64,000 nt of DNA from Chloroflexota bacterium (lineage in GTDB: Bacteria; Chloroflexota; Anaerolineae; Anaerolineales; UBA11858). Location of the stretch: the NCBI GenBank assembly GCA_018648225.1, contig JABGRQ010000081.1:6092-70091 (forward strand), given 5' to 3'. The notes under the pieces were generated by a model, which saw only the letters and a list, made by a program, of their open reading frames with translations, did not search any database and was not told where the DNA came from. Positions 7,416 to 61,015 of this stretch are shown piece by piece. Position 1 is the first letter of the stretch; the number at the start of each line of letters is the position of its first letter. The translations under genes were made by a program, and so were the position numbers.

Positions 7416-8909
7416 ATGAAACGCGCACTCATCTTGATGATTCTCTCCCTGATGCTGACGGCTTGCGGGGCCGCGCCCGAGGTGGTTCCAACTGAAACAG
7501 CGGTTCCTACACTCGCTTCGCTCGCGGCGAGTCCTACGCTCGAGCCAACCCAGACCCCGACGCCGGAACCCACCCCCACGCCAGAACCCAGCCCTACGCC
7601 CGCGCCCCCACCCGAAATCCAGTACGCCATCTCCGCCGAGTTGGATTTTAGCGCCCGTTGGCTAAAGGCATCGGAAACCATCACTATCCCCAACCTGTCA
7701 GACGAACCCATCACGAATCTGACGCTGGTCGTACAACCGCGCTGGTATGAAAACGCCTTCGAATTAACCAGCCTGACCTGGGACGATGGAACGCCGATTG
7801 AGGGTTATTATTTCGACGAAATCAGCCTGATTATTCCACTGGCGGAACCGCTGGCTCCCAATGATACGCGCCGCCTGACGATGGATTTTGAACTTTTCTT
7901 GCCCCAGATTATCCAGTCGGAAGATTATGGGCCGATCCCCTTTGGATATACGCTGCGCCAGGTCAACCTGGTCGATTGGTATCCCTTCGTTCCGGCGTAT
8001 AAAGCCGGGGAGGGCTGGATCGTACACCCTACCTGGTATTATGGCGAACACCTGGTTTACCCGGTGGCAAATTTCGATGTAGCCCTGAAAGTAGTAAATG
8101 CCCCCTCGGTGACAATGATCGCCGCCAGCGCACCCGATACGGGGAATGACGATGTGCATATTTACCATCTCGAAGATGCGCGCAATTTTGTGGCTTCGGT
8201 GAGTGCTTCGTATATGCTGCTCGAAGAACAGGTTGATGATGTGCTGGTTCAGGCATATATCTTTCCGCAGCATCAGGTGGGCGGGAAAGCCGCTTTTGAA
8301 ACCGTGATTAACGCGCTGGAATTGTATACTGAACTTTATGGCGAATATCCCCACTCTAGCATGACGCTGGTCGAAGCCGATTTTTTGCACGATATGGAAT
8401 ACCAGAGCCTGATTTTTATCAGCCACGCATTTTTCAACACCTTCGATGGTACCGCTGAAACCTATCTGGTGACGATTACGGCACATGAAACCGCGCACCA
8501 GTGGTTTTACGGGCTGGTCGGCAACGATCCGTTTTTAGAGCCGTGGCTGGATGAGGCTTTTTGCACCTACAGCGAGCGTCTCTTTTACGAAAAATTGTAT
8601 CCCAACTCGCAAGATTGGTGGTGGTACGCGCGGGTGAATTATTATGTACCCTCGGGCTGGATCGATAGCGATCTGACTTACAACGGCGGCTATCGCACCT
8701 ACCGCGATGCGATTTATTTACAAGGCGCAAAATTTTTGGAAGATTTACGCTTTTTGATCGGCGATGAGGCTTTCTTCGCCTTTGTAAAAGATTATGTGGA
8801 AACCTATCGCAATCAGATTGTCACACGCCAAGATTTTTTCACCACCCTGGCACGTCACAGCAATGTGGATATCAGCGCGTTGATGACATCGTATTTTCAG
8901 TATCCGTAG
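7416..8909 (+). CDS. M1-family zinc metallopeptidase, lipoprotein
   Basis: HETAHQWFYG...WLDEAF gluzincin motif (HExxH-18-E). Lipobox LTACG. Pro/Thr-rich linker. Confidence 0.85.
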   Translation: MKRALILMILSLMLTACGAAPEVVPTETAVPTLASLAASPTLEPTQTPTPEPTPTPEPSPTPAPPPEIQYAISAELDFSARWLKASETITIPNLSDEPITNLTLVVQPRWYENAFELTSLTWDDGTPIEGYYFDEISLIIPLAEPLAPNDTRRLTMDFELFLPQIIQSEDYGPIPFGYTLRQVNLVDWYPFVPAYKAGEGWIVHPTWYYGEHLVYPVANFDVALKVVNAPSVTMIAASAPDTGNDDVHIYHLEDARNFVASVSASYMLLEEQVDDVLVQAYIFPQHQVGGKAAFETVINALELYTELYGEYPHSSMTLVEADFLHDMEYQSLIFISHAFFNTFDGTAETYLVTITAHETAHQWFYGLVGNDPFLEPWLDEAFCTYSERLFYEKLYPNSQDWWWYARVNYYVPSGWIDSDLTYNGGYRTYRDAIYLQGAKFLEDLRFLIGDEAFFAFVKDYVETYRNQIVTRQDFFTTLARHSNVDISALMTSYFQYP

Positions 8910-8914
8910 TGAAA

Positions 8915-9009
8915 GCCCTCACCCTGACCTTCGTTTTACTCAGGTTTGTCCCTCTCCCAAAATTGGGAGAGGGACGTATTCGAAGCGCAGCGAGAATCAG
9001 GGTGAGGGC
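8915..9009. repeat. Family A palindromic repeat (outer GCCCTCACCC/GGGTGAGGGC, inner CCCTCTCCC-N-GGGAGAGGG), full copy
   Basis: Nested inverted repeats read directly from the sequence. Intergenic. Confidence 0.8.
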
Positions 9010-9022
9010 ATAGTATAAAATC

Positions 9023-9934
9023 ATGGAAAAACAACTCCTCAAAACTTACGGCAGCGGGTGCGCCCGTAATATCGCTTTCCAAATTTTCAGCGTGGTGCTG
9101 GTATTTGGCCTGTTCATCATCCCGGCGCTGATTGCAGCGTTGTGGGGCGGCGACCGAGATACCAACTTCACTTTTTTCATCGTAATTTTGATCGGGCTAA
9201 TGCTGGCAGGCATCGTCGGGGTTATCATCTGGGGCTTGCGCAGCATTCGTCAACGCGCCGCGTATCTCGATGAGGTCTTTGCCGCGTGGGGGCTGGAAGG
9301 CCAGCCTTATTTACAGAACGGACGGCGCTACCAGGGCAAATTACTCGGTCGACAGGCCGATATTTATTTCCACCGCGGCCCAACATTGGAGATCAATATC
9401 GCTGTGCCGTTGAATACGCGCGCTGCAATACTTTTCAAGAGCGAAATCGGCAAATTTGGCGCTAATCTATCGGGGTATGAAGAAGTAGACCTTAATGACC
9501 CCATTTTTCGCAATTTAAGTCTCTACGCGCTGGATGCAAATTGGATGCGCAATATTCTTCACGAGCGTGCTCCGCGCACAGCCATTCGTCAATTAATGCG
9601 GGTGACTGGAGCTTATGAACTACGCCAGATTTTGGTGCAACCTGAGGGTATCAAATTTATGCTGCGCCGCATTCAACTCGAAGCGATTAACCATAAACAT
9701 ATGGAAGCTTGGGTGAATGATCTGCGTGTGCTGCTTGAAGCCATCAAAACCGCACCCAGGCCGCAAGAGATCACCATGGTAATGACTCCACTGAAGTATG
9801 GCACCGCCGAACCCACTGATCGTAAATCGCTTGCCATTCTGGGGGCGGGGGTGGGTTGCAATGTATTATTGGCGCTGATGGCTTGTGGGGGATTGGTTGC
9901 ATTGATCGGCCTGCTAGTGTCACGATTGCAGTAG
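9023..9934 (+). CDS. Hypothetical membrane protein (2 N-terminal TM plus 1 C-terminal TM)
   Basis: ATG start and clear TM segments. No family recognised. Confidence 0.5.
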   Translation: MEKQLLKTYGSGCARNIAFQIFSVVLVFGLFIIPALIAALWGGDRDTNFTFFIVILIGLMLAGIVGVIIWGLRSIRQRAAYLDEVFAAWGLEGQPYLQNGRRYQGKLLGRQADIYFHRGPTLEINIAVPLNTRAAILFKSEIGKFGANLSGYEEVDLNDPIFRNLSLYALDANWMRNILHERAPRTAIRQLMRVTGAYELRQILVQPEGIKFMLRRIQLEAINHKHMEAWVNDLRVLLEAIKTAPRPQEITMVMTPLKYGTAEPTDRKSLAILGAGVGCNVLLALMACGGLVALIGLLVSRLQ

Positions 9935-9994
9935 TCTGAGTAAATTTCGATCCCGAATAGTACAAATATCATCAAGGGCACAGGTGGCACAAAT

Positions 9995-10050
9995 GTCATG
10001 CCGAGGCGTATAGCCGAGGCATCCAGCGCAGCGTAGGGCGCTTCGCTAGA
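9995..10050. repeat. Family B-like partial copy
   Basis: gtcatgccgaggcgtatagccgaggcatcc...cgcttcgctagac. One arm only. Confidence 0.4.
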
Positions 10051-10149
10051 CACTTGTACCTGCACTCTTCTTTTGATGAATTCACTTTTTTCTAAACATC
10101 GTTTATAATGGACTAACTTTATCCACATTCCCTTCAGGAGACCTTTTTT

Positions 10150-12144
10150 ATGCAAACACTCAATCCAAATAAGTGGCAGCGCATCATCGCGGTTGCATTG
10201 CTGTTTTTGCTGGCGTTGGTCGTTTCGGCATCGATCAGCGTACGCCCGGCATTGGCTCAAGACGATGATCCCTATGTCGAAATTATTAACGAAACCGATA
10301 CAACGCTATGCGCCTTTGGCGCCGTTCCCGCGGGCGAGAGTGAAGTCGCTGCGGAACACATCTTCGCCGAGGTGGAACTCGAACCGGGTGATGATTTTTG
10401 GGATTATTATGATCTCGTGGGCACGTTCACGCTGGTGGCTGCCGATTGTGAGGACTACACCATCGTGGAAGTGGCCGAGAACGTGGAATTAGGTCAGGTT
10501 GGCGTAATATGGTATGTGGGCGACAGCGTAGAGTATGACGGTGAAGTCGTGGCGCAGGATTCTGCCAGTAGTGGAGGATCAACCTCGAGCGAGTCCACCA
10601 CCCCCAGCGGAGATGCCGCCGATAGCGGCTTCCGTCCCGAAGATAACGGCTTCAGCTTCGAAAACTATGGCAACGATTCCGTCTCCGCCAATCTCACCGC
10701 GGCTGAACTGCAGCGCATGTTTGGCGATATGGTCTGCGCCAGTTTATCCGGAGGAGAGTGCATACTCACGCCGCCTGCGCAACGCTGGATGACCGAGATC
10801 AATAATTATATGGACGGCGGGCACTGTGAAGGCATGGCTGTGCTAAGTATGTTGATGTACGACCAAATTATTGAGGCCGCACAATTCGGCGGCGATACCG
10901 CTCACGATCTTTCACTGGCCGACGAAGCTTTGCAGCGCGAAATTGCCTATTGGTGGACAACACAGGCCACATTGCCCGCATCCTCGATCAAGCTGGACGA
11001 ATCGCCCAGTGCTATTCTGGACGTGCTGATTCAGACTTTTAACGAAGGCGCAAACGCGGCTGAAAAATGGGTCATGGGCATTTATATGGCCGATTTCAGC
11101 GGCGGGCACGCGATTACACCTTACGCCGTAGAAGATCAGGGCGGCGGCATTTTCCATGTTTTGGTTTACGACAACAACTGGCCCGATATGGGACGTGTGC
11201 TGGTGATTGATAAAAACGGCAATTCCTGGTCGTATCAGGCATCCACTAACCCCAACGAACCGGAATCGCTCTATGAAGGCGATGCCAGCACGGGCACGCT
11301 GGAAATTGTGGGCATTACCAGTCGCCTTGAGCAGCAATATTGTGAATTTTGCGCTGGCGACGGAAACGCCAGTTTGGGGCGCGGGCGCGGGCTGGCTGCT
11401 CCGGCACAAGAGTTCAATCAGATTTGGCTCAACGGCCAGGCCGACCTGCTGATCACCACCGCCGAAGGCAAACGCATTGGCTTCGTGGATGGTGAGTTCG
11501 TCAACGAGATCGAAGGCGCCCGCGGCGACAATATGAAATTCGGCGTGGATATTTGGGACATCAACAACGAGCCGGTTTACTTCATCCCGCTGGGGATTGA
11601 GTTCACCATCACGGTGGATGCCAGCCGCGCCGCAGAGGGCATCACCTCCGATGTGACCATGATCGGCCCCGGCTATAACCTGGTTGTGGCCGACCTTTAT
11701 CTGGACCCCGGAGCGAAAGATGTGATTACAATCTCCCCGGATGGCAAACGCCTGGCGTACAGCACCGAATATAACGACGCCCCAGATATGATCTTCGGCA
11801 TCGAAACCCCCGCCGCCGATTACGAATTCATCGTGGCGGCTCTGGATATCGAATCGGGCGCTGAGTTCATCGTCGAACTGGATATTGAAAACGGCACGTT
11901 GAGCATCAATACCGACAACACCACGGAATACGGCACTTACGAAATTGTGATGTACCGTATCGACGATGATGGAGAAGCCTGGTTCAATAATAATGATATT
12001 TATATGGAACCGGGCGACACCGCCTTTCTCAAATTCCTGGAATGGGAAGGCCCCGGCACCAGTATGTTCATCGACATCGACTACGGCTCCGATGGTTCCA
12101 TCGATGAGACAATTGAACTTGTAGATGAGTACGTAGCGGAATAA
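10150..12144 (+). CDS. Secreted acidic hypothetical protein; possible Cys-nucleophile hydrolase
   Basis: AGGAG SD. Signal peptide ending ALAQDD. GGHCEGMA (G-x-C-x-G) and GGHAITPYAV motifs. The function is speculative. Confidence 0.6.
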   Translation: MQTLNPNKWQRIIAVALLFLLALVVSASISVRPALAQDDDPYVEIINETDTTLCAFGAVPAGESEVAAEHIFAEVELEPGDDFWDYYDLVGTFTLVAADCEDYTIVEVAENVELGQVGVIWYVGDSVEYDGEVVAQDSASSGGSTSSESTTPSGDAADSGFRPEDNGFSFENYGNDSVSANLTAAELQRMFGDMVCASLSGGECILTPPAQRWMTEINNYMDGGHCEGMAVLSMLMYDQIIEAAQFGGDTAHDLSLADEALQREIAYWWTTQATLPASSIKLDESPSAILDVLIQTFNEGANAAEKWVMGIYMADFSGGHAITPYAVEDQGGGIFHVLVYDNNWPDMGRVLVIDKNGNSWSYQASTNPNEPESLYEGDASTGTLEIVGITSRLEQQYCEFCAGDGNASLGRGRGLAAPAQEFNQIWLNGQADLLITTAEGKRIGFVDGEFVNEIEGARGDNMKFGVDIWDINNEPVYFIPLGIEFTITVDASRAAEGITSDVTMIGPGYNLVVADLYLDPGAKDVITISPDGKRLAYSTEYNDAPDMIFGIETPAADYEFIVAALDIESGAEFIVELDIENGTLSINTDNTTEYGTYEIVMYRIDDDGEAWFNNNDIYMEPGDTAFLKFLEWEGPGTSMFIDIDYGSDGSIDETIELVDEYVAE

Positions 12145-12316: not shown

Positions 12317-14536
12317 ATGACAACAACCCCCCAATCCAATACTCGCATTCGCCAGCTCAAAACCCCGCTGGCCGTTCTCGGGCTTAGCGCCATCATTGTT
12401 TTGGGCGCGTTTTTGCGCTTCTACCAATTGGGTGCGTACAGCATTGGCAATACGTATTACGCCGCCACGGTCAAATCGATGCTCACATCGTGGCACAATT
12501 TCTTCTACGCGGCTTTCGAACCGGGCGGATCGGTGACGGTGGACAAACCCCCGCTGGGCTTCTGGGTGCAGGCGGTTTCGGCCTATTTCTTTGGCGTAAA
12601 TGGCTTCGCCCTGGCGCTGCCACAGGCATTGGCTGGTGTGTTCTCCATCGGCGTGCTTTACCATCTGGTGCGTAAATACTTCGGCGTGTGGGCCGGGCTG
12701 ATCGCGGCGCTGGTTTTGGCGGTCACACCCATCACGATTGCCACTGAGCGCAACAACACCATCGACGGTCTGCTGGTCTTTGTGTTGCTGCTGGCAGCCT
12801 GGGTATTTCTCAAGGCCGCAGAAAATGGCAAAACACGCTATCTGCTTTTCGGCGCGCTGCTGATCGGTTTGGGCTTTAACATCAAAATGCTGCAAGCCTA
12901 TATGGTGCTGCCCGCCTTCTACGCGCTCTACTTCTTCAGTGCCCGCAAGCCCTGGTGGGGACGTATCTTGCAGCTTGGCGCGGCCACAATGCTCCTGCTG
13001 GTGGTCTCTTTTGCCTGGGTCGCCGCCGTAGATTTAACAAACCCTGAAAACCGTCCCTTCATCGGCTCCAGCGACAACAACACCGTGCTGGAATTGATTA
13101 TCGGTCATAATGGTCTCAGCCGTTTGGGATTGAATAACCGCGGCCGCGGTGGAGATGGCCCGCGTGTGGCCGATGGTCCTGCTCCCGGGGCAGGGCAAGC
13201 GAACCCGGCTCCAGGTGGGGGCGTGCCCTCCGATGGTAATCCAGCCCCCGGCGCGAATCCAGCGAACGACCGCCAGCCGCCTCCCGAAGCCCTGGCAGCC
13301 TGTGCGGGACTCAGCGTTAGCGATGCCTGCACTGTCGAGTTACGCAACGGCAATACTATCGACGGCGCCTGTTCCGCATTCCCGCAGGGCGATCTGGTCT
13401 GCGGGCCCGAAGGCCGCACCCAGCCGCCCGCCAACCAAAATCCTAACGCTCCCAACGCCCAGCCTTCAACCCCCAACCGTCAACCCGGTGGCGGCATGAA
13501 CAGCAGCGAAACCGGCGCGGCGGGCGTGCTGCGCCTGTTCCTGGAGCCGCTCGTCACCGAGGCAAGCTGGCTGCTGGCGCTGGTGATGCTCGGCCTGCCG
13601 GTGGTATTGGTCATTTTGGGCTGGGCGTGGCCGCTGAGCGGCAAACATTTCAGCATTGTGCTGTGGGCGGGCTGGCTACTCCCGGCGATGGCCTATTTTG
13701 GTTTCACTACGGGACTGTTCCATCGCTATTATCTGATCATGCTGGGGCCGCCGCTGGCCGCGCTGGTGGGGATCACCTTCTGGGGTTTGGCAAAATATTG
13801 GGAACAGAATCACGCCCCGGCCTGGATCGTGACCGCCCTGCTCACCGGGATGACGATCCTTTTCGAGATTTTCACCATGCGGACGTATCCAGAATATGCC
13901 GCGGGCGTCGCCATCGCCACCATCCTGCTCTGGCTGGCCGGGATGGGTATGCTCATTTTGAAACCGCTGGCGAGAATCCGCAAAGTGGGTTTGGGCCTGG
14001 TCTTGGCGGCGTTGCTTGTCGCTCCGCTAACATGGTCGGCGTTGACGGTGTGGAATACGAGCCCCAATGTAGCCCTGCCCACAGCGGGCGTGGCCAATGC
14101 CGATCATACGCGGGCTTCGCAGATGACACCCAACGAAGAACTGCTCAACGAATACGGGCAGGCAGTGTTGGCCTACACGCTGGCAAACACCGATCCCGAT
14201 AGTTACCTGCTGGCGACCAACAACGCCCGCGGCGCGGCACCGTTCATTTTGGAAACCGGCCGCCCGGTGTTGACCTTTGGCGGCTTCAGCGGCGGGGATA
14301 ACGTGGTGGATTTGGGTGGACTGCAAGCCATGCTCGAAAACGGTGAATTGCGCTTCATTCTGGGCACGCCGCAGGGCAAGCAAGAAATTTCTCAGTGGAT
14401 GGTGAAGAATTGCTCAGTGGTGGAACTTCCGGGCATCGATGCTTCGCAGGGTCAGCCTGCCCAAGCGACTGGGCCTGGAGCTCCCGCTGGTCGACAGGAT
14501 GCTCAGAGCGAGGTGTTGTATGACTGCGGAAACTAA
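12317..14536 (+). CDS. Glycosyltransferase family 39 (ArnT/PMT-like) polytopic membrane protein
   Basis: GNTYYAATVKSM...VDKPPLGFW N-terminal signature. Many TM segments. Internal Gly/Pro-rich loop. Confidence 0.8.
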   Translation: MTTTPQSNTRIRQLKTPLAVLGLSAIIVLGAFLRFYQLGAYSIGNTYYAATVKSMLTSWHNFFYAAFEPGGSVTVDKPPLGFWVQAVSAYFFGVNGFALALPQALAGVFSIGVLYHLVRKYFGVWAGLIAALVLAVTPITIATERNNTIDGLLVFVLLLAAWVFLKAAENGKTRYLLFGALLIGLGFNIKMLQAYMVLPAFYALYFFSARKPWWGRILQLGAATMLLLVVSFAWVAAVDLTNPENRPFIGSSDNNTVLELIIGHNGLSRLGLNNRGRGGDGPRVADGPAPGAGQANPAPGGGVPSDGNPAPGANPANDRQPPPEALAACAGLSVSDACTVELRNGNTIDGACSAFPQGDLVCGPEGRTQPPANQNPNAPNAQPSTPNRQPGGGMNSSETGAAGVLRLFLEPLVTEASWLLALVMLGLPVVLVILGWAWPLSGKHFSIVLWAGWLLPAMAYFGFTTGLFHRYYLIMLGPPLAALVGITFWGLAKYWEQNHAPAWIVTALLTGMTILFEIFTMRTYPEYAAGVAIATILLWLAGMGMLILKPLARIRKVGLGLVLAALLVAPLTWSALTVWNTSPNVALPTAGVANADHTRASQMTPNEELLNEYGQAVLAYTLANTDPDSYLLATNNARGAAPFILETGRPVLTFGGFSGGDNVVDLGGLQAMLENGELRFILGTPQGKQEISQWMVKNCSVVELPGIDASQGQPAQATGPGAPAGRQDAQSEVLYDCGN

Positions 14537-14537
14537 A

Positions 14538-15020
14538 ATGATCTTGCCCTCACCCCGTCTACCGCTACGCTCTAGACTCCCCTCTCCCGATTTCGGGAGA
14601 GGGGCCGGGGGCGAGGGCAAAATTCAAAAAACGCTTACCCAAGCCTTCCGATACGCACTCGTCGGCGTTTCGAACACGCTGATTGATGCAGCAACCTACT
14701 ACACCCTGACGCGCGCGCTTGGGTTGGCGACACTGCCGGTGCTGGCAAAAGGTTTGGCCTACGCCATTGGCATGACTAACAGCTTTTACTGGAACCGTAC
14801 CTGGACATTTCGTGCTAAGGATACAATATATCGTGTCCCAATCTGGCGAGCGGCTTTCCTCTTCACACTAACACATATCGTCGCACTGGGCATCAACGCC
14901 GGGGTGATGGCCCTCAGCCTGAACTTGTTGCACGTTCCGGAAATTGTCGCTCTGATTCTGGCAACTGCGGCCGCCTTCGGCTGGAATTTCTTCCTGAACA
15001 AGTGGGTTGTTTTTAAATAA
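14538..15020 (+). CDS. GtrA-family membrane protein; N-terminus encoded by a palindromic repeat
   Basis: FRYALVGVSNTLIDAATYY and GWNFFLNKWVVF GtrA motifs. The nearest canonical start is ATG 14538, 2 nt after the GT39 stop. The start is uncertain. Confidence 0.7.
   Translation: MILPSPRLPLRSRLPSPDFGRGAGGEGKIQKTLTQAFRYALVGVSNTLIDAATYYTLTRALGLATLPVLAKGLAYAIGMTNSFYWNRTWTFRAKDTIYRVPIWRAAFLFTLTHIVALGINAGVMALSLNLLHVPEIVALILATAAAFGWNFFLNKWVVFK
14546..14618. repeat. Family A palindromic repeat at the gtrA 5' end
   Basis: gccctcacccc...cccctctcccgatttcgggagagggg...ggggcgagggc. Confidence 0.8.
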
Positions 15021-15268: not shown

Positions 15269-16048
15269 ATGAAAACTCGCATTCTATTCAGTTTATCTTT
15301 GATTATGCTTCTGGTTGGGGTAACACTCCCGGCAATGGCGGCGGCTCCACGACAAACAACCCCCATTTTGTCGCCAACGCCCGGCCCAGACGGGCGGATT
15401 ATTTATACTGTACAAGCAGGCGATTCCGTGTGGAGTATTTCAGCCAATTTCAATATTCCGCTTGATGAGCTACGCGCGCTCAATGGTCTGGCAGATGATG
15501 CCGTCATCGCCCCCGGGGATGAGATTTTCCTGGGGCTTGGCGGCCCTGCCACGGCGGTCCCTGCCGCACAAGCCACGCCCACACCCATGCCCGCCGGGCC
15601 AACGCCTACGGTCGAAATTGGTTTTGGTATTCTATGCGTGATCTTGTATGACGATATCAACGGGGACGCGATCCGCCAGGAAGAGGAAATATCCATCCCA
15701 GGCGGAGCTATCAGCATCGGCAACGCCACCGGTACAGTTTCGATCACCGAAGATACGCTCAGCGGTTTGGATCATTTCTGCACAACCGAAATAGAAGAAG
15801 GCGAATATACGATTACTGTCGGTGTCCCCGATGGCTATAACCCCACCACTGAATTCAGCGCGGCTATCACCCTCAACCCCGGAGATGAAAGCTATCTTGA
15901 TTTTGGCGCGCAAAAGAACTCGGTCAAGGTTGCCGAAGAGCCAGCTCCAATCGGCGAAGGGCCATCCCCCACGTTAGGAATTATTGGCGCGGCTGTAATT
16001 TTGCTGGGAATCATCCTGGGCGTGTATGCTATTTTCATGCGGCGATAA
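15269..16048 (+). CDS. LysM-domain surface protein with SdrD-B/Cna-B-like domain and C-terminal TM anchor
   Basis: Signal peptide. LysM motif YTVQAGDSVWSISANFNIPLDELRALNGL. DINGDAIRQ-type repeat. Hydrophobic C-terminus. Confidence 0.75.
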   Translation: MKTRILFSLSLIMLLVGVTLPAMAAAPRQTTPILSPTPGPDGRIIYTVQAGDSVWSISANFNIPLDELRALNGLADDAVIAPGDEIFLGLGGPATAVPAAQATPTPMPAGPTPTVEIGFGILCVILYDDINGDAIRQEEEISIPGGAISIGNATGTVSITEDTLSGLDHFCTTEIEEGEYTITVGVPDGYNPTTEFSAAITLNPGDESYLDFGAQKNSVKVAEEPAPIGEGPSPTLGIIGAAVILLGIILGVYAIFMRR

Positions 16049-16057
16049 AAGTACGCA

Positions 16058-16103
16058 TAAAAAAGAGCGCAATGCTGGAAAACAGCATTGCGCTCTTTTT
16101 TTT
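16058..16103. terminator. Bidirectional intrinsic terminator (LysM gene / galE)
   Basis: Perfect 14-bp stem agagcgcaatgctg/cagcattgcgctct flanked by A6 and T8. The T-run overlaps the galE stop. Confidence 0.85.
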
Positions 16104-17079
16104 ATGCTATATACCCATGCGGATGCGTCTGGTGCCATTCCCAGGCGCTGGCGATAATATCCTTTAGGGCGGGGGTTTGAGGCTGCCAGCCCAGTTCGCG
16201 CTGTATCCGCTCGGAGGCGGCTACCAGCCGCGGGGCGTCGCCCGCCCGCCGCGGGGTTTCTTCCACCGGGATTGGATGCCCGGTGACTTCGCGGGCGGTT
16301 TCGATCACTTCCCGCACAGAATATCCCGCGCCATTGCCCAGGTTATAGACCATCTGCTCGCGTTCGCCCAATGCGTCTAATGCCAACAGGTGCGCAGAAA
16401 CCAGATCGCGGATATGAATATAGTCGCGGATGCAGGTGCCATCGGGGGTCGGATAATCTGTGCCATAGATATAGATTTTCGCGCGTTGCCCGAGGGGGAC
16501 TTGCAACGTCAGCGGGATGAGGTGCGATTCGGGCTGGTGCGCTTCCCCGCGGTGGGCAAAGCCTCCGGCGGCATTGAAATAACGCAAGGCCGCGTAATGC
16601 AGCCCGTGGATTTGCCGGTACCATTCCAGGGCTTGTTCGATCATCAATTTCGTATGCCCATAGAGATTGTTCGGCCCCAAAGGTGAATTTTCGCTAAGCG
16701 GCTCATCACTGGACTGATATACCGCTGCTGTAGACGAAAGTACAAAGCGCCTCACACCTGCCTGTACCGCGGCTTCAATCAACTCCAATGAGTAGGTTAA
16801 ATTATTCTTGAAATATTTGCCGGGGTTTTTCATGCTCTCGCCAGCCTCAATGAAAGCCGCAAAGTGCATCACAGCATCATAAGGCTGGGCGCTCAGGGCA
16901 GTTTTCAGCGCAGCCGCATCGCCCAGATCGGCCTGAATGAAGTGCGCCGCTGCCGGAATTGCAGCGCGATGACCAGTTACCAACGAATCATAAACCGTTA
17001 CAGAATGTCCATTCGCAAGCAAAGTTTCGGCAGTCGCCGAGCCAATATAGCCCGCCCCGCCAGTTAGAAAAATACGCAT
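16102..17079 (-). CDS. galE: UDP-glucose 4-epimerase
   Basis: MRIFLTGGAGYIGS Rossmann motif and YGHTK (YxxxK). 325 aa. Confidence 0.9.
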   Translation of the reverse strand: MRIFLTGGAGYIGSATAETLLANGHSVTVYDSLVTGHRAAIPAAAHFIQADLGDAAALKTALSAQPYDAVMHFAAFIEAGESMKNPGKYFKNNLTYSLELIEAAVQAGVRRFVLSSTAAVYQSSDEPLSENSPLGPNNLYGHTKLMIEQALEWYRQIHGLHYAALRYFNAAGGFAHRGEAHQPESHLIPLTLQVPLGQRAKIYIYGTDYPTPDGTCIRDYIHIRDLVSAHLLALDALGEREQMVYNLGNGAGYSVREVIETAREVTGHPIPVEETPRRAGDAPRLVAASERIQRELGWQPQTPALKDIIASAWEWHQTHPHGYIA

Positions 17080-17139
17080 ATAGAGCCTCTATTCATTACT
17101 TTTATACTCAACAACCATAGCATTAACATCAATAAAAAC

Positions 17140-17215
17140 TAACGCAAGGTCGCAAAGAAGCCAAAGCGCAGAGAATAAAATCTAAACTCTGCGACTTTGC
17201 GTTTACGTGTTTAAG
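17140..17215. repeat. Family C palindromic repeat
   Basis: taacgcaaggtcgcaaagaagccaaagcgcagag...ctctgcgactttgcgttta. Confidence 0.7.
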
Positions 17216-17303
17216 CTTCTATTGATAAATACGCTATCCATCACTTTCTTACTTTGCTCGCCTATTATACAACGCGGCAGAACGCTCTCAACAAATTTGT
17301 TAG

Positions 17304-17331
17304 TTGACTTCACTACTTGAACCCTTATACT
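17304..17331 (+). promoter_or_regulatory. Sigma-70-type promoter upstream of the Flp-like gene
   Basis: TTGACT (17304-17309), 16-nt spacer, TATACT (17326-17331). Confidence 0.45.
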
Positions 17332-17411
17332 TGAATAACAAGACTTTTCAATTCATTAACAATTCCGATACAATCGTTATCATTCACGCACATCATTCCT
17401 GGGAACTAGCT

Positions 17412-18917
17412 ATGTCGAGAGAATATCCATCTAATATAAGCCGTAATTTTTGCGCAAACCGCTCCCGCGGGCAGGGGTTGGTGGAGTACGCCATCATTCT
17501 GGTGTTGATCTCCATGGCCGTCATGGGCGGGCTGGCGCTTACCGGAACCAGCGTGGGCAATGTTTACCAAAATGTTGTTGATTCACTGCGCGGCGAAGAA
17601 CTCAGCGGGGGAGAAACCCCGCTGGAGGCAACTCCCACCCCAACACCCATCCCCGAAGACATGCTCGTAAACGTGGTCACCAGTTCGGGCAGCACAATTT
17701 CCGGCGTGAAGGTATCCGCCTTCAACAGCGAGAGCGCCCAGGTGGCCTCGGCAGAATCCAATCTTGACGGCGTCGCCACATTCTCCGGTCTGAATCCCGG
17801 ACGCTACAAATTCCGCGCCGAGTATAACGGTCAAGAATTCTGGTCGGTGACAATTTCGTATCCAGCCCAAACCAGCACGACGATTACAATTACTGTCCGA
17901 GAAATCAATGTGCATGTCATGAACGCACGCGGCCTCACCCTTGCCGACATCCCCGTTCACGCCTATACCGACGCCGAAGCCTATGCCGGAGACAGCCAGA
18001 CGACTAATCAAAACGGCATGGCAACCTTCACGCTGCCCGATGGCAGCTACAAATTCCGCGCCGATTATAAAGGCCAGCCCTATTGGTCAGAAACGATCAT
18101 CACTACCAGCACCACTTCGGTAAATATCCGCATCCCCGAAGCGCCCTTCACAGTACGCGTCACCAACCGCCAGGGGCAGGCCGTCAGTAAGGTGCCAGTA
18201 TACGCCTTCAATACGACAGGAGACTATTCAGGGATTTCTGGTCGCACCGATAAGAACGGAATAGCGATTGTGGATTTACCCGATGGAAGTTATAAATTCC
18301 GGGCGGATTACGATGGGCAGGAATACTGGTCAGACGCAGTGACCAGCCCCGATGTGGATTCAACCACCATACAGGTGGGCGGGACGCAGGTCACTGTGAA
18401 AGTGGTCACCAGCAACGGAACGGGACTCGCCAACTTGAAGGTATACACTTATTACGCCGATGATAGCTACGCGGGCAAACGCGCTTCAACCAACAAGGAA
18501 GGCCGCGCCACCCTCGAGCTAAACGATGGCAGCTATAAATTCCGTGTGGACTACCAGCATACAACCTACTGGTCGGATACCATCAACGTACCCCAAACAA
18601 CCACTGCGACGATCACCGTAGGGGCAGGACAGCTCACGGTTAAGGTAGTCGATCAACGTAAAGACCCCTTCCCCGGCGTTTATGTATATGCCTATCGGAT
18701 TGTAAAAAGCGGAAACACAACCTATTATTACTATTCCGGCCAATACGGCATCACAGATGGCAACGGTAATGTTGTACTTAAACTAAACCCTGATACTTAT
18801 CGTATTTTGGGCTACAACTACAATTACCGCAACTACAACTACCATTTCCGCTACGAATGGTCTGGTTATATCAGTGTACCGCCTACAACGGCGATCACGC
18901 TGCGCATAAATCGGTGA
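17412..18917 (+). CDS. Flp/Fap-type prepilin N-terminus fused to 5 tandem carboxypeptidase-regulatory-like repeats
   Basis: RGQGLVEYAIILVLISMAVMGG matches G-XXXX-EY plus a hydrophobic helix. Five repeats each carry the core motif xDGSYKFRADYxGQxYWS; repeat 1 has NPGRYKFRAEY, and repeat 5 is degenerate (NPDTYRILGYNY) and lacks the YKFR and GQ..YWS elements. Confidence 0.75.
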   Translation: MSREYPSNISRNFCANRSRGQGLVEYAIILVLISMAVMGGLALTGTSVGNVYQNVVDSLRGEELSGGETPLEATPTPTPIPEDMLVNVVTSSGSTISGVKVSAFNSESAQVASAESNLDGVATFSGLNPGRYKFRAEYNGQEFWSVTISYPAQTSTTITITVREINVHVMNARGLTLADIPVHAYTDAEAYAGDSQTTNQNGMATFTLPDGSYKFRADYKGQPYWSETIITTSTTSVNIRIPEAPFTVRVTNRQGQAVSKVPVYAFNTTGDYSGISGRTDKNGIAIVDLPDGSYKFRADYDGQEYWSDAVTSPDVDSTTIQVGGTQVTVKVVTSNGTGLANLKVYTYYADDSYAGKRASTNKEGRATLELNDGSYKFRVDYQHTTYWSDTINVPQTTTATITVGAGQLTVKVVDQRKDPFPGVYVYAYRIVKSGNTTYYYYSGQYGITDGNGNVVLKLNPDTYRILGYNYNYRNYNYHFRYEWSGYISVPPTTAITLRINR

Positions 18918-18927
18918 GAGTATAAAC

Positions 18928-19344
18928 ATGACTGAAGAAAAGAACATCCAAGACACCCAAGAACTGATTGAACAAATGCGCGCTAATGCGCTGGAAGAAG
19001 CCGAAGATGCCCCCTCGGTAGTCGGCAAACGTTGGGGTGCCAAAGAAATAAAAACCAAACGCTCGCCCTGGGTACTACGCAGCCTGATCATTGTATTATT
19101 CATCGCGGTATTTGCAGAGGGTTATCTCATCATCCGCCACCAGCGCACTGTGCCAGAAATCTTGATCCATTCCGCGCCGCCGATTGCAGCGCTGGCAACC
19201 CCAACCATCGAAAACCCTTTCCCCACACCCCCTATTGAAGGCTATGAAGAAGCCCCGCCCGATTTACCCGCTCCTGCCGAAGCTCCCTGGCCCGAAGGTG
19301 TGCCAACGCTCGAAGTGATTGAATTCCCCGAACCAGATGAATAA
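18928..19344 (+). CDS. Hypothetical single-pass membrane protein with Pro-rich C-terminus
   Basis: Starts 11 nt after the Flp-like gene. TM segment WVLRSLIIVLFIAVFAEGYLII. Confidence 0.5.
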   Translation: MTEEKNIQDTQELIEQMRANALEEAEDAPSVVGKRWGAKEIKTKRSPWVLRSLIIVLFIAVFAEGYLIIRHQRTVPEILIHSAPPIAALATPTIENPFPTPPIEGYEEAPPDLPAPAEAPWPEGVPTLEVIEFPEPDE

Positions 19345-19378
19345 AATAAAACGGCGGGTTTCTACTCGCGGTTTTATT

Positions 19379-20173
19379 TTATTGCCTACTTTTTAATTGA
19401 GCGCGTTGCACAAAGCCGCCGCGTTCGACAACCGCCCGTGTATGGAAACCTGCCCCGATCTGCTCTTCCGCATCCCAGGCAGATACAGCCAGTTGCACCC
19501 GTGTTTTAACAACTTCGAGAATCTCAACTTCCACACGGATCTGAGCGCCAATCGGCGTGGGGGCCAGATGCTTCACATCGACATGCGTGCCGACACTCAT
19601 CCAGCCCGCGGGGAGATGCTCGGCTATCAGCCGGTTGGAAACGCGCTCCATAAATGAAATCATCCAGGGGGTGCCCAGAACGCGTTCGTCGCCGCTGCCA
19701 ATATGATAGGCCGTATGCTGCTCTTCGACACCGAAAGTTTCTACACGCGTAAGCCCCGGATGCACTTGCGCCATTTGCGGCGCGGGACTGCCTGCATCCA
19801 AACTCGGCAGCGGCCACCACTCTTTGCACTGCTCTTTCGTAAACGATGGTGACGCAGCGCTCAGATATCGGAGTGGTATAGCTCCGGTATTCTCAAGGCC
19901 GTGCTCGGCAAATGACGAAAAGAAGATCGTATCGCCTGCATATACCTGACGCTGCTCGCCATCCACCGTCATCAAGCCGCTGCCCTCAACAATATGATAG
20001 ATTTGCTCCGGCTCATGCGAGTGCATACGCTGCACACCGCCTGGCTTCATTTCCACCAACGTGACCGCCAACTGCTCGGCCTCACCGGTTAGCTTTGAAA
20101 CCAATAGATATGATGTAATGCCATCGCGCTGATAGCGAGGGGCTGTGTTAATTTTTGCAATATACATACTCAT
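19379..20173 (-). CDS. Cupin domain fused to FlK-like hotdog thioesterase domain
   Basis: N-terminal cupin motifs (HSHEPEQIYHIVEG..., FAEHGLEN). C-terminal YHIGSGDERVLGTPWMISFME...GTHVDVKHLAPTPIG resembles the fluoroacetyl-CoA thioesterase family. Confidence 0.65.
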   Translation of the reverse strand: MSMYIAKINTAPRYQRDGITSYLLVSKLTGEAEQLAVTLVEMKPGGVQRMHSHEPEQIYHIVEGSGLMTVDGEQRQVYAGDTIFFSSFAEHGLENTGAIPLRYLSAASPSFTKEQCKEWWPLPSLDAGSPAPQMAQVHPGLTRVETFGVEEQHTAYHIGSGDERVLGTPWMISFMERVSNRLIAEHLPAGWMSVGTHVDVKHLAPTPIGAQIRVEVEILEVVKTRVQLAVSAWDAEEQIGAGFHTRAVVERGGFVQRAQLKSRQ

Positions 20174-20188
20174 CTGAATACCTTTCTA

Positions 20189-21208
20189 TCAGGCTACCGC
20201 CCACCAATCGACAGCCTCGCGCAGGCCAAAATTGGTCAGGCGTTCTCGCACGATGCTGCGGGCATGGCGAGCGCCGACCGCGGCTAAAACCACCGGGTTC
20301 TGATAGCGCCTCCACCAGGCCAACAAATCATCTGCCGCAACAATCGGTTTGCCGCGGCGCGTATTGCCAATTTTTCTGGGGTCAATATCCACAAAGACTT
20401 CAACAGGAGCGCCTTCAGTGCGCATCAGATGCTTGCTCAGGCGGCGGCCCATCATGCCTGCCCCCCAGATGATGACCGCGTCGCGCCCTATCAGCGGCCC
20501 GCGCATCAGGTAATGAGCTTTGGCGCGCAGAAAATTTTCAAGCGAGTAACGGCTGTCGGTGCGGGTAATGCGCTGGGGGTGCTCGCGCCAATCCAATAAT
20601 ATCTCAGGGATTTTAGCAAAACGCGCCCCGGCCAGATACAGGCGCAGATACAGGTCGTAATCTTCAGGCCAGCCGCGCTCGTGATAACCGCCCATCTGCC
20701 GCAGCCAGTCGGCGCGCAACATCACACTGGGATTAGGCAGTGGGCTTTCGACGAATATTTCCCGCCGAATGTCGGCATCGCTGACCAGGGCGTTAAGCCA
20801 CTCGATATAAATGCGAAAACCTTCGCGTACATCTTCGGTCGGAAAGCCACGCACCAGGCTGCTGACTACGGCAACGTCGGGATGCTGTTCGAGATACGCG
20901 GCCTGTTTTTCGAGCCGTTGAGGGTGTGCGAGGTCGTCGGCGTCGATGCGGGCAATATAGGGCGCGCGGCAGGCTGCTATTGCCGCGTTGGCCGCAGCGA
21001 TCACCCCCGCGTGGGGCTGAGTCCACACTCGAAAACGCCGATCCACCCCGGCCCGGGTCTTGAGCATCCGCCCGGTTGCATCCTCCGAGCCATCATCCAC
21101 GGCGATAACTTCAAAATCGGCTAATGTCTGCCGGGACAGGGAATCCAGCGTTTCTTCGAGCGTTTTTTCAGCGTTATAGCAGGGCAAGATCACAGAGACA
21201 GCAGGCAT
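20189..21208 (-). CDS. Glycosyltransferase family 2
   Basis: VSVILPCYNAEKTLEETLDSL...VIAVDDGSEDAT and DADD motif. Confidence 0.85.
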   Translation of the reverse strand: MPAVSVILPCYNAEKTLEETLDSLSRQTLADFEVIAVDDGSEDATGRMLKTRAGVDRRFRVWTQPHAGVIAAANAAIAACRAPYIARIDADDLAHPQRLEKQAAYLEQHPDVAVVSSLVRGFPTEDVREGFRIYIEWLNALVSDADIRREIFVESPLPNPSVMLRADWLRQMGGYHERGWPEDYDLYLRLYLAGARFAKIPEILLDWREHPQRITRTDSRYSLENFLRAKAHYLMRGPLIGRDAVIIWGAGMMGRRLSKHLMRTEGAPVEVFVDIDPRKIGNTRRGKPIVAADDLLAWWRRYQNPVVLAAVGARHARSIVRERLTNFGLREAVDWWAVA

Positions 21209-26632: not shown

Positions 26633-27316
26633 ATGACATACTTTAGCCGCGACCCCGTAAGCGCACACGCTGCTGCGCGTGTTTTAGCCAGAACAATTTT
26701 CAGACGTTTCTTTTGGCAGGGGAAATTGCTGCCCGCATTTTGGACAGTGATGAGTATCTCATCTTTTGTTGTCAATATTATTTTGATCGTTTTGCTTGTG
26801 GCGTTGAGTCAGCAGGTGAGTACGCTAAAAGACCTGGTTTCAACTCAACTATTGACGGGTTTGAGTGATAATTTTGCCGCGATGGATAAAGCCGTGATTG
26901 AAACCTCCATTATAGTTGATGATACAATTCCAGTTCAATTTGATTTACCAGTTTCAACAACGACCAATGTAATCCTTACGCAGCCGACATCTATTCGCGG
27001 CGCTCAGGTAGCCATTACGTCTGGCATCCTTAGCATTAATGCCCCGGCAGATATTATACTCCCGGCGGGCACCAGTTTGCCGATTGCGCTGGATATTACG
27101 GTTCCGGTGAATGAAACCGTGCCCGTGCATCTGGTTGTAGATGTGAGTATTCCGCTCAAAGATACTGGCTTGCATGACCCGTTTGTTGGGTTGCAGCAGG
27201 TGGTTGAACCCTATAACCAGCTTTTGATGCAAGAAAGCGCTCCGTTGGATGAATGGGATTTGTGTCAGGGAGATTGGGGCTTTCTGTGTGATTTATATTC
27301 TTTATTGAAAAAATGA
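26633..27316 (+). CDS. Hypothetical membrane-anchored protein
   Basis: AGGAG SD. One TM (FVVNIILIVLLVAL). Ends 7 nt before the M16 gene. Confidence 0.5.
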   Translation: MTYFSRDPVSAHAAARVLARTIFRRFFWQGKLLPAFWTVMSISSFVVNIILIVLLVALSQQVSTLKDLVSTQLLTGLSDNFAAMDKAVIETSIIVDDTIPVQFDLPVSTTTNVILTQPTSIRGAQVAITSGILSINAPADIILPAGTSLPIALDITVPVNETVPVHLVVDVSIPLKDTGLHDPFVGLQQVVEPYNQLLMQESAPLDEWDLCQGDWGFLCDLYSLLKK

Positions 27317-59616: not shown

Positions 59617-60114
59617 TTATACATCCTCAAAGCGAATATTGACATTGGTCATGCTGTTGCCCAGATCAACGCCCTGAATGACAATCGCTTGCCCTTTGGC
59701 GTGTCCATCAAAGACCATGCTGAAGGTAGTATCGGTGATTGCAGTGTTGATTTTTCGCTCCGTCAGGCCCATCTCGGCAAAAATGCGGCGATAAAAATCG
59801 ATCGCCTGTTCAAGGGTCATACTGGTGGCAAAATTGACCTGATCGTCGCCACCGGTGAAATTTTGTACATCATCGGGCAGGGGAAATTCGGTATCGTAAT
59901 CGCCCGATTTCCCGGGCGGCGGGCCTGCGGGCTTTTCTTCGCCCGGAGGCGGCGCTTCAAGGGTAGGTTTTGCACCAGGAGGCGCATCTTGTTGGATGGG
60001 TGGCTGGGCTTCTTCGGCAGCGGGAGCTTCAGCGCCGCCGTTGACCAGGGAACAAGCCAGGCTGGCTACCAACAAGGTGATGAGTACCCATGCAAAAAGG
60101 TGTTTATTTTTCAT
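59617..60114 (-). CDS. Hypothetical lipoprotein
   Basis: MKNKHLFAWVLITLLVASLACS lipobox and a Pro-rich linker. Confidence 0.55.
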   Translation of the reverse strand: MKNKHLFAWVLITLLVASLACSLVNGGAEAPAAEEAQPPIQQDAPPGAKPTLEAPPPGEEKPAGPPPGKSGDYDTEFPLPDDVQNFTGGDDQVNFATSMTLEQAIDFYRRIFAEMGLTERKINTAITDTTFSMVFDGHAKGQAIVIQGVDLGNSMTNVNIRFEDV

Positions 60115-60154
60115 AATATTTTTCTCTCAATATCTTTACTACGAAAGTTCACAG

Positions 60155-61015
60155 CTAACGGCAGGCCTCGCGCCAGGCATCCAAATCCCAATTTTTCTTC
60201 AGGAAATCGAAATTCAGAGCGTTGGTCTGGGGGCAAAATTCATCGCTGGCGAGTTCATATTCTACCCCAAAAACGGCTTTTCCGGCTTCAACGAAGGGCA
60301 GCAACATTTCGCACTCACCATAATAGGGGCATTCTTCGTTGAGCGCCCAATCGTAATAGGCCACCAGATCGGGGATTTGGTTGAGATCATTTTTCAGCCC
60401 AATCGAGAGACCGCGTGCGTGGGCCTGTTCGGCGAGCCAGAGATTGAAATCCAGTTGATGCTGATATGCCAGTTCAAATCCCGATGGATTTTCGTAGGCG
60501 TTGACGTTGTCGGGGTCTACGCCGTCACAGCCTTTCTCGACGGCCAGATCAAGGCGGGCAGCCATCAACGGGGCCAGCACATCCAAGGCGCGAATATCCA
60601 GCCAGTATTCGCCCGGCCAGCCCTCGAGCGGATCCCCGATGACATCTTTGGGAAACTGGCCCGCGTCGGGACGCCACTCTTCCCAACTCCCGGCGCTGAA
60701 ATAGCAAATCACCACGCGCCCATCGGCGCGCAATTGTTCGATAATCTGCTCAGAGACTTCAAAGAGATCAATATCGTACATTTCAACATCAAAGGAGATA
60801 TCCGGTCCGGCGCTGCTGAGTTCGATCTGCCAACTTGTGCCCGGGACGGGCTGCCACCACGCGCCTGTCTCCGCAGGCACGGGCGTGTTCACCGGAGCAA
60901 CCGTCGCGGGTGGCTCAATTTGCTCAGAGATACCAATACAGGCGCTAAGGGCGAAAAATAGCAGGATGAAAACCGCATAGAAAAAGGATTTGGGAAAATG
61001 AGCAGCAATTTGCAC
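60155..61015 (-). CDS. Endo-alpha-1,4-polygalactosaminidase-like glycoside hydrolase (GH114), lipoprotein
   Basis: VICYFSAGSWEEWRPD, GCDGVDPDNVNAYEN and GLSIGLKND motifs. Lipobox LSACIG. GTG start with no obvious SD. Confidence 0.7.
   Translation of the reverse strand: MQIAAHFPKSFFYAVFILLFFALSACIGISEQIEPPATVAPVNTPVPAETGAWWQPVPGTSWQIELSSAGPDISFDVEMYDIDLFEVSEQIIEQLRADGRVVICYFSAGSWEEWRPDAGQFPKDVIGDPLEGWPGEYWLDIRALDVLAPLMAARLDLAVEKGCDGVDPDNVNAYENPSGFELAYQHQLDFNLWLAEQAHARGLSIGLKNDLNQIPDLVAYYDWALNEECPYYGECEMLLPFVEAGKAVFGVEYELASDEFCPQTNALNFDFLKKNWDLDAWREACR

Follow-up and report, generated by a model that had tools for sequence, protein, structure and literature searches.

A predicted modular Flp-class prepilin with a five-domain beta-sandwich rod and a co-inherited membrane partner in Chloroflexota

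In this study, we examined one gene in a stretch of 64,000 nucleotides from a Chloroflexota bacterium (assembly GCA_018648225.1, contig JABGRQ010000081.1; the whole stretch is called the window below) and relate its product to the known pilins of type IV filaments. The open reading frame (ORF) at 17412-18917 on the plus strand runs from an ATG at 17412 to a stop codon at 18915-18917 and encodes 501 amino acids (aa), the length given in a first-pass annotation of this DNA. We propose, with a probability of roughly 0.55, that the gene encodes a modular type IVc (T4c; Flp/Tad-class) prepilin, which would be cut by TadV, displayed through its Flp helix and most plausibly used as a minor or tip subunit of a pilus. 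The architecture of the protein, a Flp pilin module joined by a linker to five beta-sandwich repeats, is solidly established and uncharacterised; its function is what we infer.

The N-terminal Flp pilin module

The N-terminus reads MSREYPSNISRNFCANRSRG|QGLVEYAIILVLISMAVMGGLALTG..., in which G20|Q21-GLV-E25-Y26 fits the pattern G/XXXXEY. This specificity of TadV-class processing reportedly goes back to work by Kachlany in 2001 and Tomich in 2006. Our homolog search gave 101 matches, 58 of which share the Flp and repeat architecture at lengths of 324-638 aa and with overall identities of 25-85%. Gly at -1, Glu at +5 and Tyr at +6 are present in all 58, a result to be read with the selection pattern, which itself required G-1, E+5 and Y/F+6. 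Gln at +1 and Gly at +25, which the pattern left free, are invariant in 58/58 as well. The leaders vary from 4 to 44 aa and are unconserved apart from G-1.

From 34 N-termini of the family we built a profile of 52 columns, which matches the mature Tad pilin of Caulobacter, 8u1k_A, with E=1.1e-6 and the Flp pilin 8u2b_A with E=1.4e-5. The alignments are gap-free over chain residues 4-42 of 45, with E12/Y13 of the profile falling on E5/Y6 and the invariant Gly on G25. Because the profile stands in the mature register of these solved Tad pilins, cleavage is predicted between G20 and Q21, that is before QGLVEY, and not before LVEY, the other site that the first-pass annotation had considered. Residues 21-62 correspond to a whole mature Tad pilin of 45 aa, and the mature protein would be 481 aa long, five domains beyond the helix of about 40-60 aa that is usual for Flp pilins.

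Searched against 1.84 billion cluster representatives, the N-terminal profile returned 28,257 proteins at E<=1e-3 and 2,409 at E<=1e-10. Among the newly returned top matches, 107 of 147 are at most 100 aa long and typically end where the module ends, the best being stand-alone Flp pilins of 48-100 aa. The short Flp pilins among these representatives read '...GQGLVEYALILVLVA..LLGPxIGNVFSxI...', and the window module is on average 49% identical to them (23/42 residues at best), without gaps and with the second half included, where [GS][DN]V[YF] is conserved. The AlphaFold2 (AF2) model gives two helices separated by a kink at G45 and followed by a disordered linker.

TadE (PF07811) did not match the window protein even at E<=1, and NCBIfam held no pilin model for it. 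N-methylation-type Pfam families were absent at E<=1 from a general Pfam scan, in which the IPR012902/N_methyl model was not scored separately, and the 46-aa N-terminus by itself drew no matches in a homolog search. Judged by its sequence, the N-terminus is a genuine Flp-class (type IVc) pilin module; the G-XXXX-EY motif and Flp-type hydrophobic helix recognised at first reading are borne out by the invariant residues, the match to 8u1k/8u2b and the retrieval of short Flps.

The repeat rod, the partner gene and their distribution

Cut at AlphaFold domain boundaries, repeats 1-4 are exactly 81 aa long each and repeat 5 is 97 aa long owing to its Tyr/Asn-rich insertions; pairwise identity among the five is 26-41%. 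The first-pass annotation was right in counting five tandem repeats with a divergent fifth and in placing a Pro/Thr linker (residues 63-80, read from the sequence) after the helix, and its repeat length of about 90 aa has to be corrected to these values. Pfam CarboxypepD_reg (PF13620) matches in five stretches (E=4e-27, 94.8 bits against a cut-off of 32.3), with weaker matches to the Ig/prealbumin-like models Big_1, MG4, SpaA and SdrD_B. The AF2 model, made from a 58-sequence alignment, has a mean predicted local distance difference test score (pLDDT) of 87.7, with all five sandwiches above 90. Compared with the PDB by Foldseek, it resembles the multi-domain stalks found in surface proteins and pilins of Gram-positive bacteria (B. 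anthracis TIE 6fwv, BcpA, SpaA, SpaC, SdrD) and macroglobulin (MG) domains, with E-values down to 1e-12, and a PDB sequence-profile search agrees with these matches. The suspected carboxypeptidase-regulatory or Ig-like character of the repeats is upheld by the PF13620 score and the modelled sandwiches; going by the model, the C-terminal repeats are transthyretin-like beta-sandwiches of the PF13620 type.

The Gram-positive stalks (TIE 6fwv, BcpA, SpaA, the B repeats of SdrD) and MG domains have in common with the window protein a rod of tandem prealbumin/CnaB-like beta-sandwiches, but here there is no LPXTG sorting signal, the isopeptide Lys is not conserved and the anchoring principle is another. 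The C-terminus (...TAITLRINR) carries no LPXTG, no transmembrane (TM) or other anchor and no sorting motif. Isopeptide-stabilised CnaB domains were considered and rejected because the strand-A Lys, present in repeats 4 and 5 only, is not conserved among the repeats.

All Flp-architecture homologs that could be placed in a genome belong to Chloroflexota, mostly to Anaerolineae. A scan of GTDB species representatives, for which a closer subset was used since the full 58-sequence alignment was too divergent, found 13 Flp-type loci, every one in Chloroflexota (Anaerolineae, Anaerolineales/Anaerolineaceae, 'CFX15' and one Chloroflexia). The closest locus, in 'Anaerolineae bacterium NIOZ-UU35', is 95% identical. 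The architecture had initially been called one not recognised as characterised. We likewise found no experimental characterisation, but it recurs as a family, to some members of which automated pipelines have already given the name 'Flp family type IVb pilin' or 'pilus assembly protein Flp/PilA'.

The pilin gene is followed by a gene for a small Pro-rich membrane protein, as had been noticed; this is not an incidental neighbour but a conserved partner, found only with the giant Flp family. Pfam and NCBIfam gave no match to it. Alignments show that the partner begins with a cytoplasmic stretch, in which an Arg and an E-D-A-P motif are conserved, and has a basic segment K-E-I-K-x-R-R-S-P-W, one TM helix (aa 47-74) with a near-invariant Glu64, making the protein bitopic, and a Pro-rich, acidic, disordered tail ending in P-x-L-E-x-I-E-x-P. 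AF2 models the TM helix 47-74 with confidence and the rest as disorder, and shows nothing more. A hidden Markov model (HMM) of the partner, for which a closer subset was taken since the 14-sequence alignment was too divergent for locus scans, places it directly 3' of the giant pilin in 16 of 19 Chloroflexota loci; the three others are a contig end, a tandem-paralog locus and the Chloroflexia locus. Conversely, all six metagenome loci fetched with the partner as query have a giant pilin upstream; two of the six are cut by a contig end and still show the repeats. In six homolog neighbourhoods, the one neighbour in common beyond close-relative synteny is a gene of 125-148 aa immediately downstream. 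A partner profile search found 12 homologs, all of 133-148 aa and none named; for several of them the longest contig is exactly as long as that recorded for a giant-pilin homolog. The N-in/C-out topology, the buried Glu and the strict coupling suggest that the partner may work with the pilin helix in the membrane. One JGI record labels a member of the partner family 'cytoskeletal protein RodZ', apparently because the topology is similar.

The repeats also occur outside the Flp family. The other 43 of the 101 homologs lack the Flp N-terminus; most are about 800 aa long with ordinary N-termini and DGSYKFRADY..YWS repeats, and many have RHS/YD Pfam domains. The remaining 64 loci of the GTDB scan (L025-L088) match in the repeats only and are mostly YD/RHS proteins of about 800 aa from Desulfobacterota. 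Such relatives, and the fusion of ARC toxin domains to Flp pilins that one 2025 paper notes in passing (PMC12605009), would be the grounds for seeing in the window protein a polymorphic-toxin or RHS-related delivery protein. We give this reading hardly any credence, as it is largely refuted by the domain content: the protein ends right at repeat 5, a Pfam scan found in it neither RHS repeats (PF05593, PF25023, PF03527) nor a toxin domain, and no immunity-like gene is apparent. What the shared repeats suggest is that the repeat cassette may move between unrelated surface or toxin proteins. In the repeats-only relatives (P0004, P0006, P0008 etc.) the DGSYKFRADY..YWS repeats make up the N-terminal part, and one match lies on a contig of a Candidatus Hecatellales archaeon.

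Several variant arrangements were seen within Flp fusions. In the metagenome-assembled genome (MAG) CALCSH01 there are two copies that are not linked, with 67% and 36% identity to the window protein. Locus L021 has two giant Flp genes around a weak partner-like ORF (8262-9494, 9434-9931, 9953-11608), and L008 has two shorter Flp fusions in a row (10001-11014, 11484-11843) and no partner. Grafting onto Flp is not unique to the window protein, as smaller Flp fusions of 120-160 aa exist (P0116, P0119, P0134, P0159, P0177, P0187, P0232; P0174, P0193, P0216), with at least two recurring small C-terminal modules, one Ig-like ('...VTVTV..TLSAGG..C..C...GTYTV...SGSY') and the other Cys-/Gly-rich. All ten representatives scanned match Flp_Fap, and the C-terminal parts of the fusions have no Pfam family or match Big_1 weakly. 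Other proteins have two Flp modules in tandem (P0102-P0108, P0135, P0147, P0229, P0230; 138-182 aa), and one of 418 aa has four matched stretches; these could be real fused flp genes or artefacts of read-through or assembly.

Relation to known pilins and proposed role

What defines Tad/Flp pili is their pilin, the smallest one known, which consists of a bare helix without a globular domain. The Flp/Fap type IVc pilins (Flp1 of Aggregatibacter actinomycetemcomitans; PilA of Caulobacter crescentus, 8u1k; Flp, 8u2b) share with the window protein a basic leader, the residues Gly-1 and Gly25, the 'flp motif' E5-Y6, a hydrophobic helix about 20 residues long and a C-terminal half that is amphipathic. 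They consist of the helix only, about 45 aa when mature, whereas the window protein is a helix plus 439 residues and is not encoded in a tad locus. The TadE/TadF pseudopilins (PF07811) are likewise larger Tad proteins that TadV cleaves at a site resembling G/XXXXE[YF], but at about 150-200 aa they have a fold of their own, and the window N-terminus matches Flp_Fap instead. Large T4b minor pilins such as CofB and TcpB combine a pilin N-terminus, a linker and beta-rich domains, with a proposed role in starting assembly and a proposed place at the tip. Unlike the window protein, they belong to the T4b class and lie inside a pilus operon, and no sequence similarity between the two was detected. 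CofB and TcpB are cited as a beta-repeat/beta-sandwich module (PMC8179133).

A parallel in design is found in the modular type IV pilins (S. sanguinis PilB with a vWA and PilC with a lectin domain; IPR012902 with PF13620), in which a pilin module, a short linker and a grafted non-pilus domain are joined (PMC8179133). These are thought to be tip-exposed adhesins, with PF13620 among the commonest grafted modules, and PF13620-bearing pilins of the IPR012902 type are documented (PMC8179133). The window protein is built in the same way, from a Flp module, a disordered linker and five PF13620 domains. The chassis differs, being N-methylated, of the T4a/b type, with a globular pilin domain and in pil loci there (PMC8179133), and a domain-less T4c helix with a five-domain rod and a partner gene here. 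The modular-pilin survey of Raynaud et al. 2021 used IPR012902 only and never mentions Flp/Tad (PMC8179133). A 2023 review of type 4 filaments lists Flp1, TadE and TadF as the only T4c pilins, and we found no description of the giant Flp family in the literature on Flp pilins of Chloroflexi, on Tad pili of Chloroflexota or on C-terminal extensions of Flp. The modular-pilin concept and the grafting of PF13620 are already established; what is new is the combination, restricted to Chloroflexota, of a T4c chassis, a five-domain rod and a partner specific to the family. To our knowledge, published modular-pilin work is confined to N-methylated pilins of the T4a/b type.

As the giant Flp family shows, large modules can be grafted onto the bare Flp helix itself. 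The simplest type IV pilin is here joined to a large surface or adhesion module, in a way that is uncharacterised and comes with a strictly co-inherited membrane partner. This occurs in a phylum where Tad pili, often the only pilus system present, have been connected with aggregation, floc formation and gliding. The predicted cleavage site, the two-gene cassette and the homolog set are testable objects that bear on how T4c machinery deals with bulky subunits and on how filamentous Chloroflexota build their surface.

In the mechanism that we favour, the precursor would insert N-in/C-out in the cytoplasmic membrane and would be cut at G20|Q21 by a prepilin peptidase of the TadV type (A24, non-methylating), whose gene would lie in another part of the genome. 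The mature protein would then be held by its Flp helix with a beta-sandwich rod of about 15-20 nm displayed outside the cell, and the Tad machinery would take it up alongside ordinary short Flp subunits as a low-abundance or tip subunit. A role of this kind has been proposed for PilB and PilC and for architectures of IPR012902 with PF13620 (PMC8179133). The helix should still polymerise because the complete pilin-pilin interface is kept (E5, Y6, G25 and [GS][DN]V[YF]). In the Tad filament, it is Tyr6 that holds the subunits in register, with further specificity coming from polar contacts close to the C-terminus (PMC10710030). The rod might act as an adhesin or spacer in cell-cell or cell-surface attachment, the aromatic-rich repeat 5 being the likely binding end. 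The partner would probably escort, anchor or regulate the giant pilin in the membrane, which is the weakest step of the scheme. Tad clusters are conserved and expressed in Anaerolineales, where they are linked to aggregation (PMC4877987), and are the sole pilus genes in several Chloroflexota (PMC7332563; bioRxiv 2025.08.19.671072).

Several points weigh against incorporation into a Tad pilus, the first being the Pfam score. Taken alone, the window protein matches Flp_Fap (PF04964) over aa 24-57 with E=0.012 and 15.8 bits, against a cut-off of 32.2. Within the family, 29 of 58 members match at E<=0.1 (best E 2.7e-5), and all ten representatives scanned from the profile search match with E-values of 1e-5 to 1e-7 and 24.6-31.5 bits, all under the Pfam cut-off. 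Since genuine short Flps also score below it (26.9-31.5 bits for stand-alone Flps of 48-53 aa from the clade), the threshold is simply too strict for this clade. The Flp HMM search named as a check in the first-pass annotation hence leaves the single sequence short of the threshold, in the company of the clade's bona fide pilins. An ordinary type II signal-anchor or Sec-cleaved surface protein, with a vestigial resemblance to Flp and no processing by a prepilin peptidase, would account for the sub-threshold match and for the fact that no peptidase gene is in view. It is nevertheless very improbable, given that G-1, Q+1, E+5, Y+6 and G+25 are constant in 58 diverged homologs with otherwise unconserved leaders, that the profile matches solved Tad pilins in register, and that a charged Glu in a plain anchor helix would not be conserved without reason. 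The Glu-Tyr pair, the loss of which had been named as a mark of such an anchor, is kept by the homologs.

A further difficulty lies in the missing machinery. As first noted, none is nearby: Pfam scans of essentially all large ORFs in the window found no T2SSE/CpaF/TadA, T2SSF/TadBC, peptidase A24 or TadE, and no tad/cpa gene was found within 8-10 kb of about 25 related loci, including six diverse homolog neighbourhoods. The flanks were screened by regular expressions for CpaF Walker A and A24 GxGDxK motifs, a crude screen whose negative outcome is only supportive. That this organism has a TadV is an assumption based on published work on relatives, and all members of the family derive from MAGs. 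A six-frame scan of the window gave no second N-terminus of the form G-x4-E-[YFW]-hydrophobic. The missing local tad genes are uninformative because an orphan short flp gene of the clade (53 aa, with a precomputed Flp_Fap match) also lies apart from a tad locus, without tad genes within 8 kb.

The role as a minor or tip subunit is itself purely what we infer, and it is proposed because fitting every subunit with a 45-kDa appendage would be sterically hard. This difficulty follows from the Tad filament, which rises 4.9 Å per subunit at a diameter of about 50 Å (PMC10710030); the computed filament surface is about 770 Å^2 per subunit, close to the cross-section of one beta-sandwich. The protein might instead be the major subunit of a homopolymeric 'bottle-brush' filament or sheath of its own, with a core of Flp helices and a rod on every subunit, put together by Tad-like assembly with help from the partner. 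Its complete pilin module and its long flexible linker, which could let the rods splay radially, would suit such a structure, as would the two or tandem paralogs of some genomes (L013/L019 in one MAG, L021, L008) and the filamentous nature of Anaerolineae. We regard it as improbable: packing at about 770 Å^2 per subunit would be extremely dense, the ordinary short Flps that the profile search found in abundance in the clade fit the role of major pilin, and no such filament is reported in the literature on Chloroflexota Tad pili.

The strictly co-occurring partner, which is no known Tad component, hints at a separate pathway and counts against pilus incorporation as well. The main rival is a surface protein retained in the membrane, in which the Flp module would serve as class III signal and anchor and the rod would span the multilayered Chloroflexota envelope, possibly with the partner, and never enter a pilus. 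We consider this possible, if on balance unlikely. The gene pair never adjoins tad genes, the dedicated non-Tad partner combines a TM helix with a Pro-rich, wall-spanning tail, there is a precedent for class III signal peptides on proteins other than pilins (PMC3047682), and retention would avoid the steric cost of large cargo on a filament with a 4.9 Å rise. Anchoring alone, however, fails to explain why a whole Flp module is kept in polymerising register (E5/Y6, G25 and the amphipathic second half), and the distance from tad loci is shared by short flp genes. The precedent is that of the Sulfolobus bindosome sugar-binding proteins (PMC3047682), which are likewise large, extracellular, made with a pilin-type signal and encoded apart from the pilus machinery; these are archaeal, have a substrate-binding cargo and keep the signal only, whereas here the whole Flp module is kept. 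A broader and rather doubtful idea is that the Flp/Tad system of Anaerolineae, or the prepilin peptidase alone, serves large cargo-bearing Flp proteins with a partner of their own, either as a bacterial counterpart of the bindosome or as a decorated 'bottle-brush' filament or sheath of Flp subunits of about 50 kDa, with the partner and the Glu in its membrane helix as a new assembly or anchoring factor.

Gene structure and neighbourhood

The reading frame of the pilin gene is open upstream as far as a TTG at 17304. We favour the ATG at 17412 because it is the start chosen in the gene calls of 23 public contigs encoding the identical protein, because a homolog 85% identical (P0002) has the same length of 501 aa, and because promoter-like sites lie inside the putative extension (Table 1). 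The consensus promoter scan gave 7 sites in the region against 3.3 expected. Pilin and partner together occupy 17412-19344 and are flanked on both sides by genes of the opposite strand. The partner start just past the pilin stop, the promoter-like sites and the terminator-like hairpin make the pair look like a co-transcribed two-gene operon. Rfam gave no match in 16900-19500.

Table 1. Features of the giant Flp gene and its partner; positions are those of the window.
Feature	Position	Strand	Basis
Two sigma-70-like promoter matches (TTGACT-16-TATACT; TTAACA-16-TATCAT), 5' of ATG	17304-17331 and 17356-17383	+	Consensus scan only
Leader peptide, aa 1-20, basic, ending in invariant Gly20; predicted class III/prepilin leader	17412-17471	+	
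Predicted Flp pilin module, aa 21-62 (QGLVEY...; helix 23-43, invariant Gly45, helix 49-59)	17472-17597	+	Profile match, Flp_Fap, AF2
Flexible acidic Pro/Thr-rich linker, aa 63-80 (...GEELSGGETPLEATPTPTPI...)	17598-17651	+	AF2 pLDDT <50 at residues 60-75; sequence
Beta-sandwich repeat 1, aa 81-161, NPGRYKFRAEYNGQEFWS	17652-17894	+	Pfam, AF2, repeat alignment
Beta-sandwich repeat 2, aa 162-242, PDGSYKFRADYKGQPYWS	17895-18137	+	Pfam, AF2, repeat alignment
Beta-sandwich repeat 3, aa 243-323	18138-18380	+	Pfam, AF2, repeat alignment
Beta-sandwich repeat 4, aa 324-404	18381-18623	+	Pfam, AF2, repeat alignment
Divergent distal repeat 5, aa 405-501, with Tyr/Asn-rich insertions, and stop codon	18624-18917	+	AF2, repeat alignment
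Conserved partner gene, 138 aa, starting 10 nt past the pilin stop	18928-19344	+	Alignments, AF2, locus scans
Terminator-like hairpin and T-run	19354-19379 (hairpin 19354-19369)	+	Consensus scan only

The window carries ordinary chromosomal genes, among them those for RNase J, PCMT, a MutY-like protein, M1/M16/M19/M42 peptidases, FtsK, ABC/ECF/Znu transporters, SerRS and DnaE. Closer to the pilin lie a PMT_2/YkcB_C glycosyltransferase with a long Pro/Gly/Asn-rich insert (12317-14536) and GtrA (14439-15020) and, on the minus strand, a UDP-sugar epimerase (16102-17079), a cupin/FlK protein (19379-20173) and a GT2 glycosyltransferase (20189-21208). Another wall-associated surface protein, of 259 aa (15269-16048), is conserved beside the epimerase in close relatives; it consists of a signal peptide, a LysM domain, a Pro/Thr linker and an SdrD_B-like beta-sandwich and ends in a TM anchor. 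The LysM protein, the epimerase, FlK and GT2 are kept in a relative with 67% identity and none of them in distant relatives, for which reason these envelope and glycan neighbours are probably local synteny. A glycosylation-island context (PMT_2, GtrA, epimerase, GT2) was set aside, as it is common to close relatives only.

Four ORFs of the window had no Pfam match, three at E<=1e-3 (9023-9934, 303 aa; 10150-12144, 664 aa; 26633-27316, 227 aa) and one at 1e-4 (59996-60961, 321 aa); the gene calls of all public contigs with this region include the first two. The divergent intergenic region upstream of the pilin contains a perfect 14-bp inverted repeat (AACGCAAGGTCGCA...TGCGACTTTGCGTT; 17141-17203), which has no Rfam match and a folding energy of -22.9 kcal/mol (z=-3.2). 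As it lies downstream of a strong minus-strand promoter-like site (17291-17264), this repeat may be part of the 5' leader of the epimerase mRNA.

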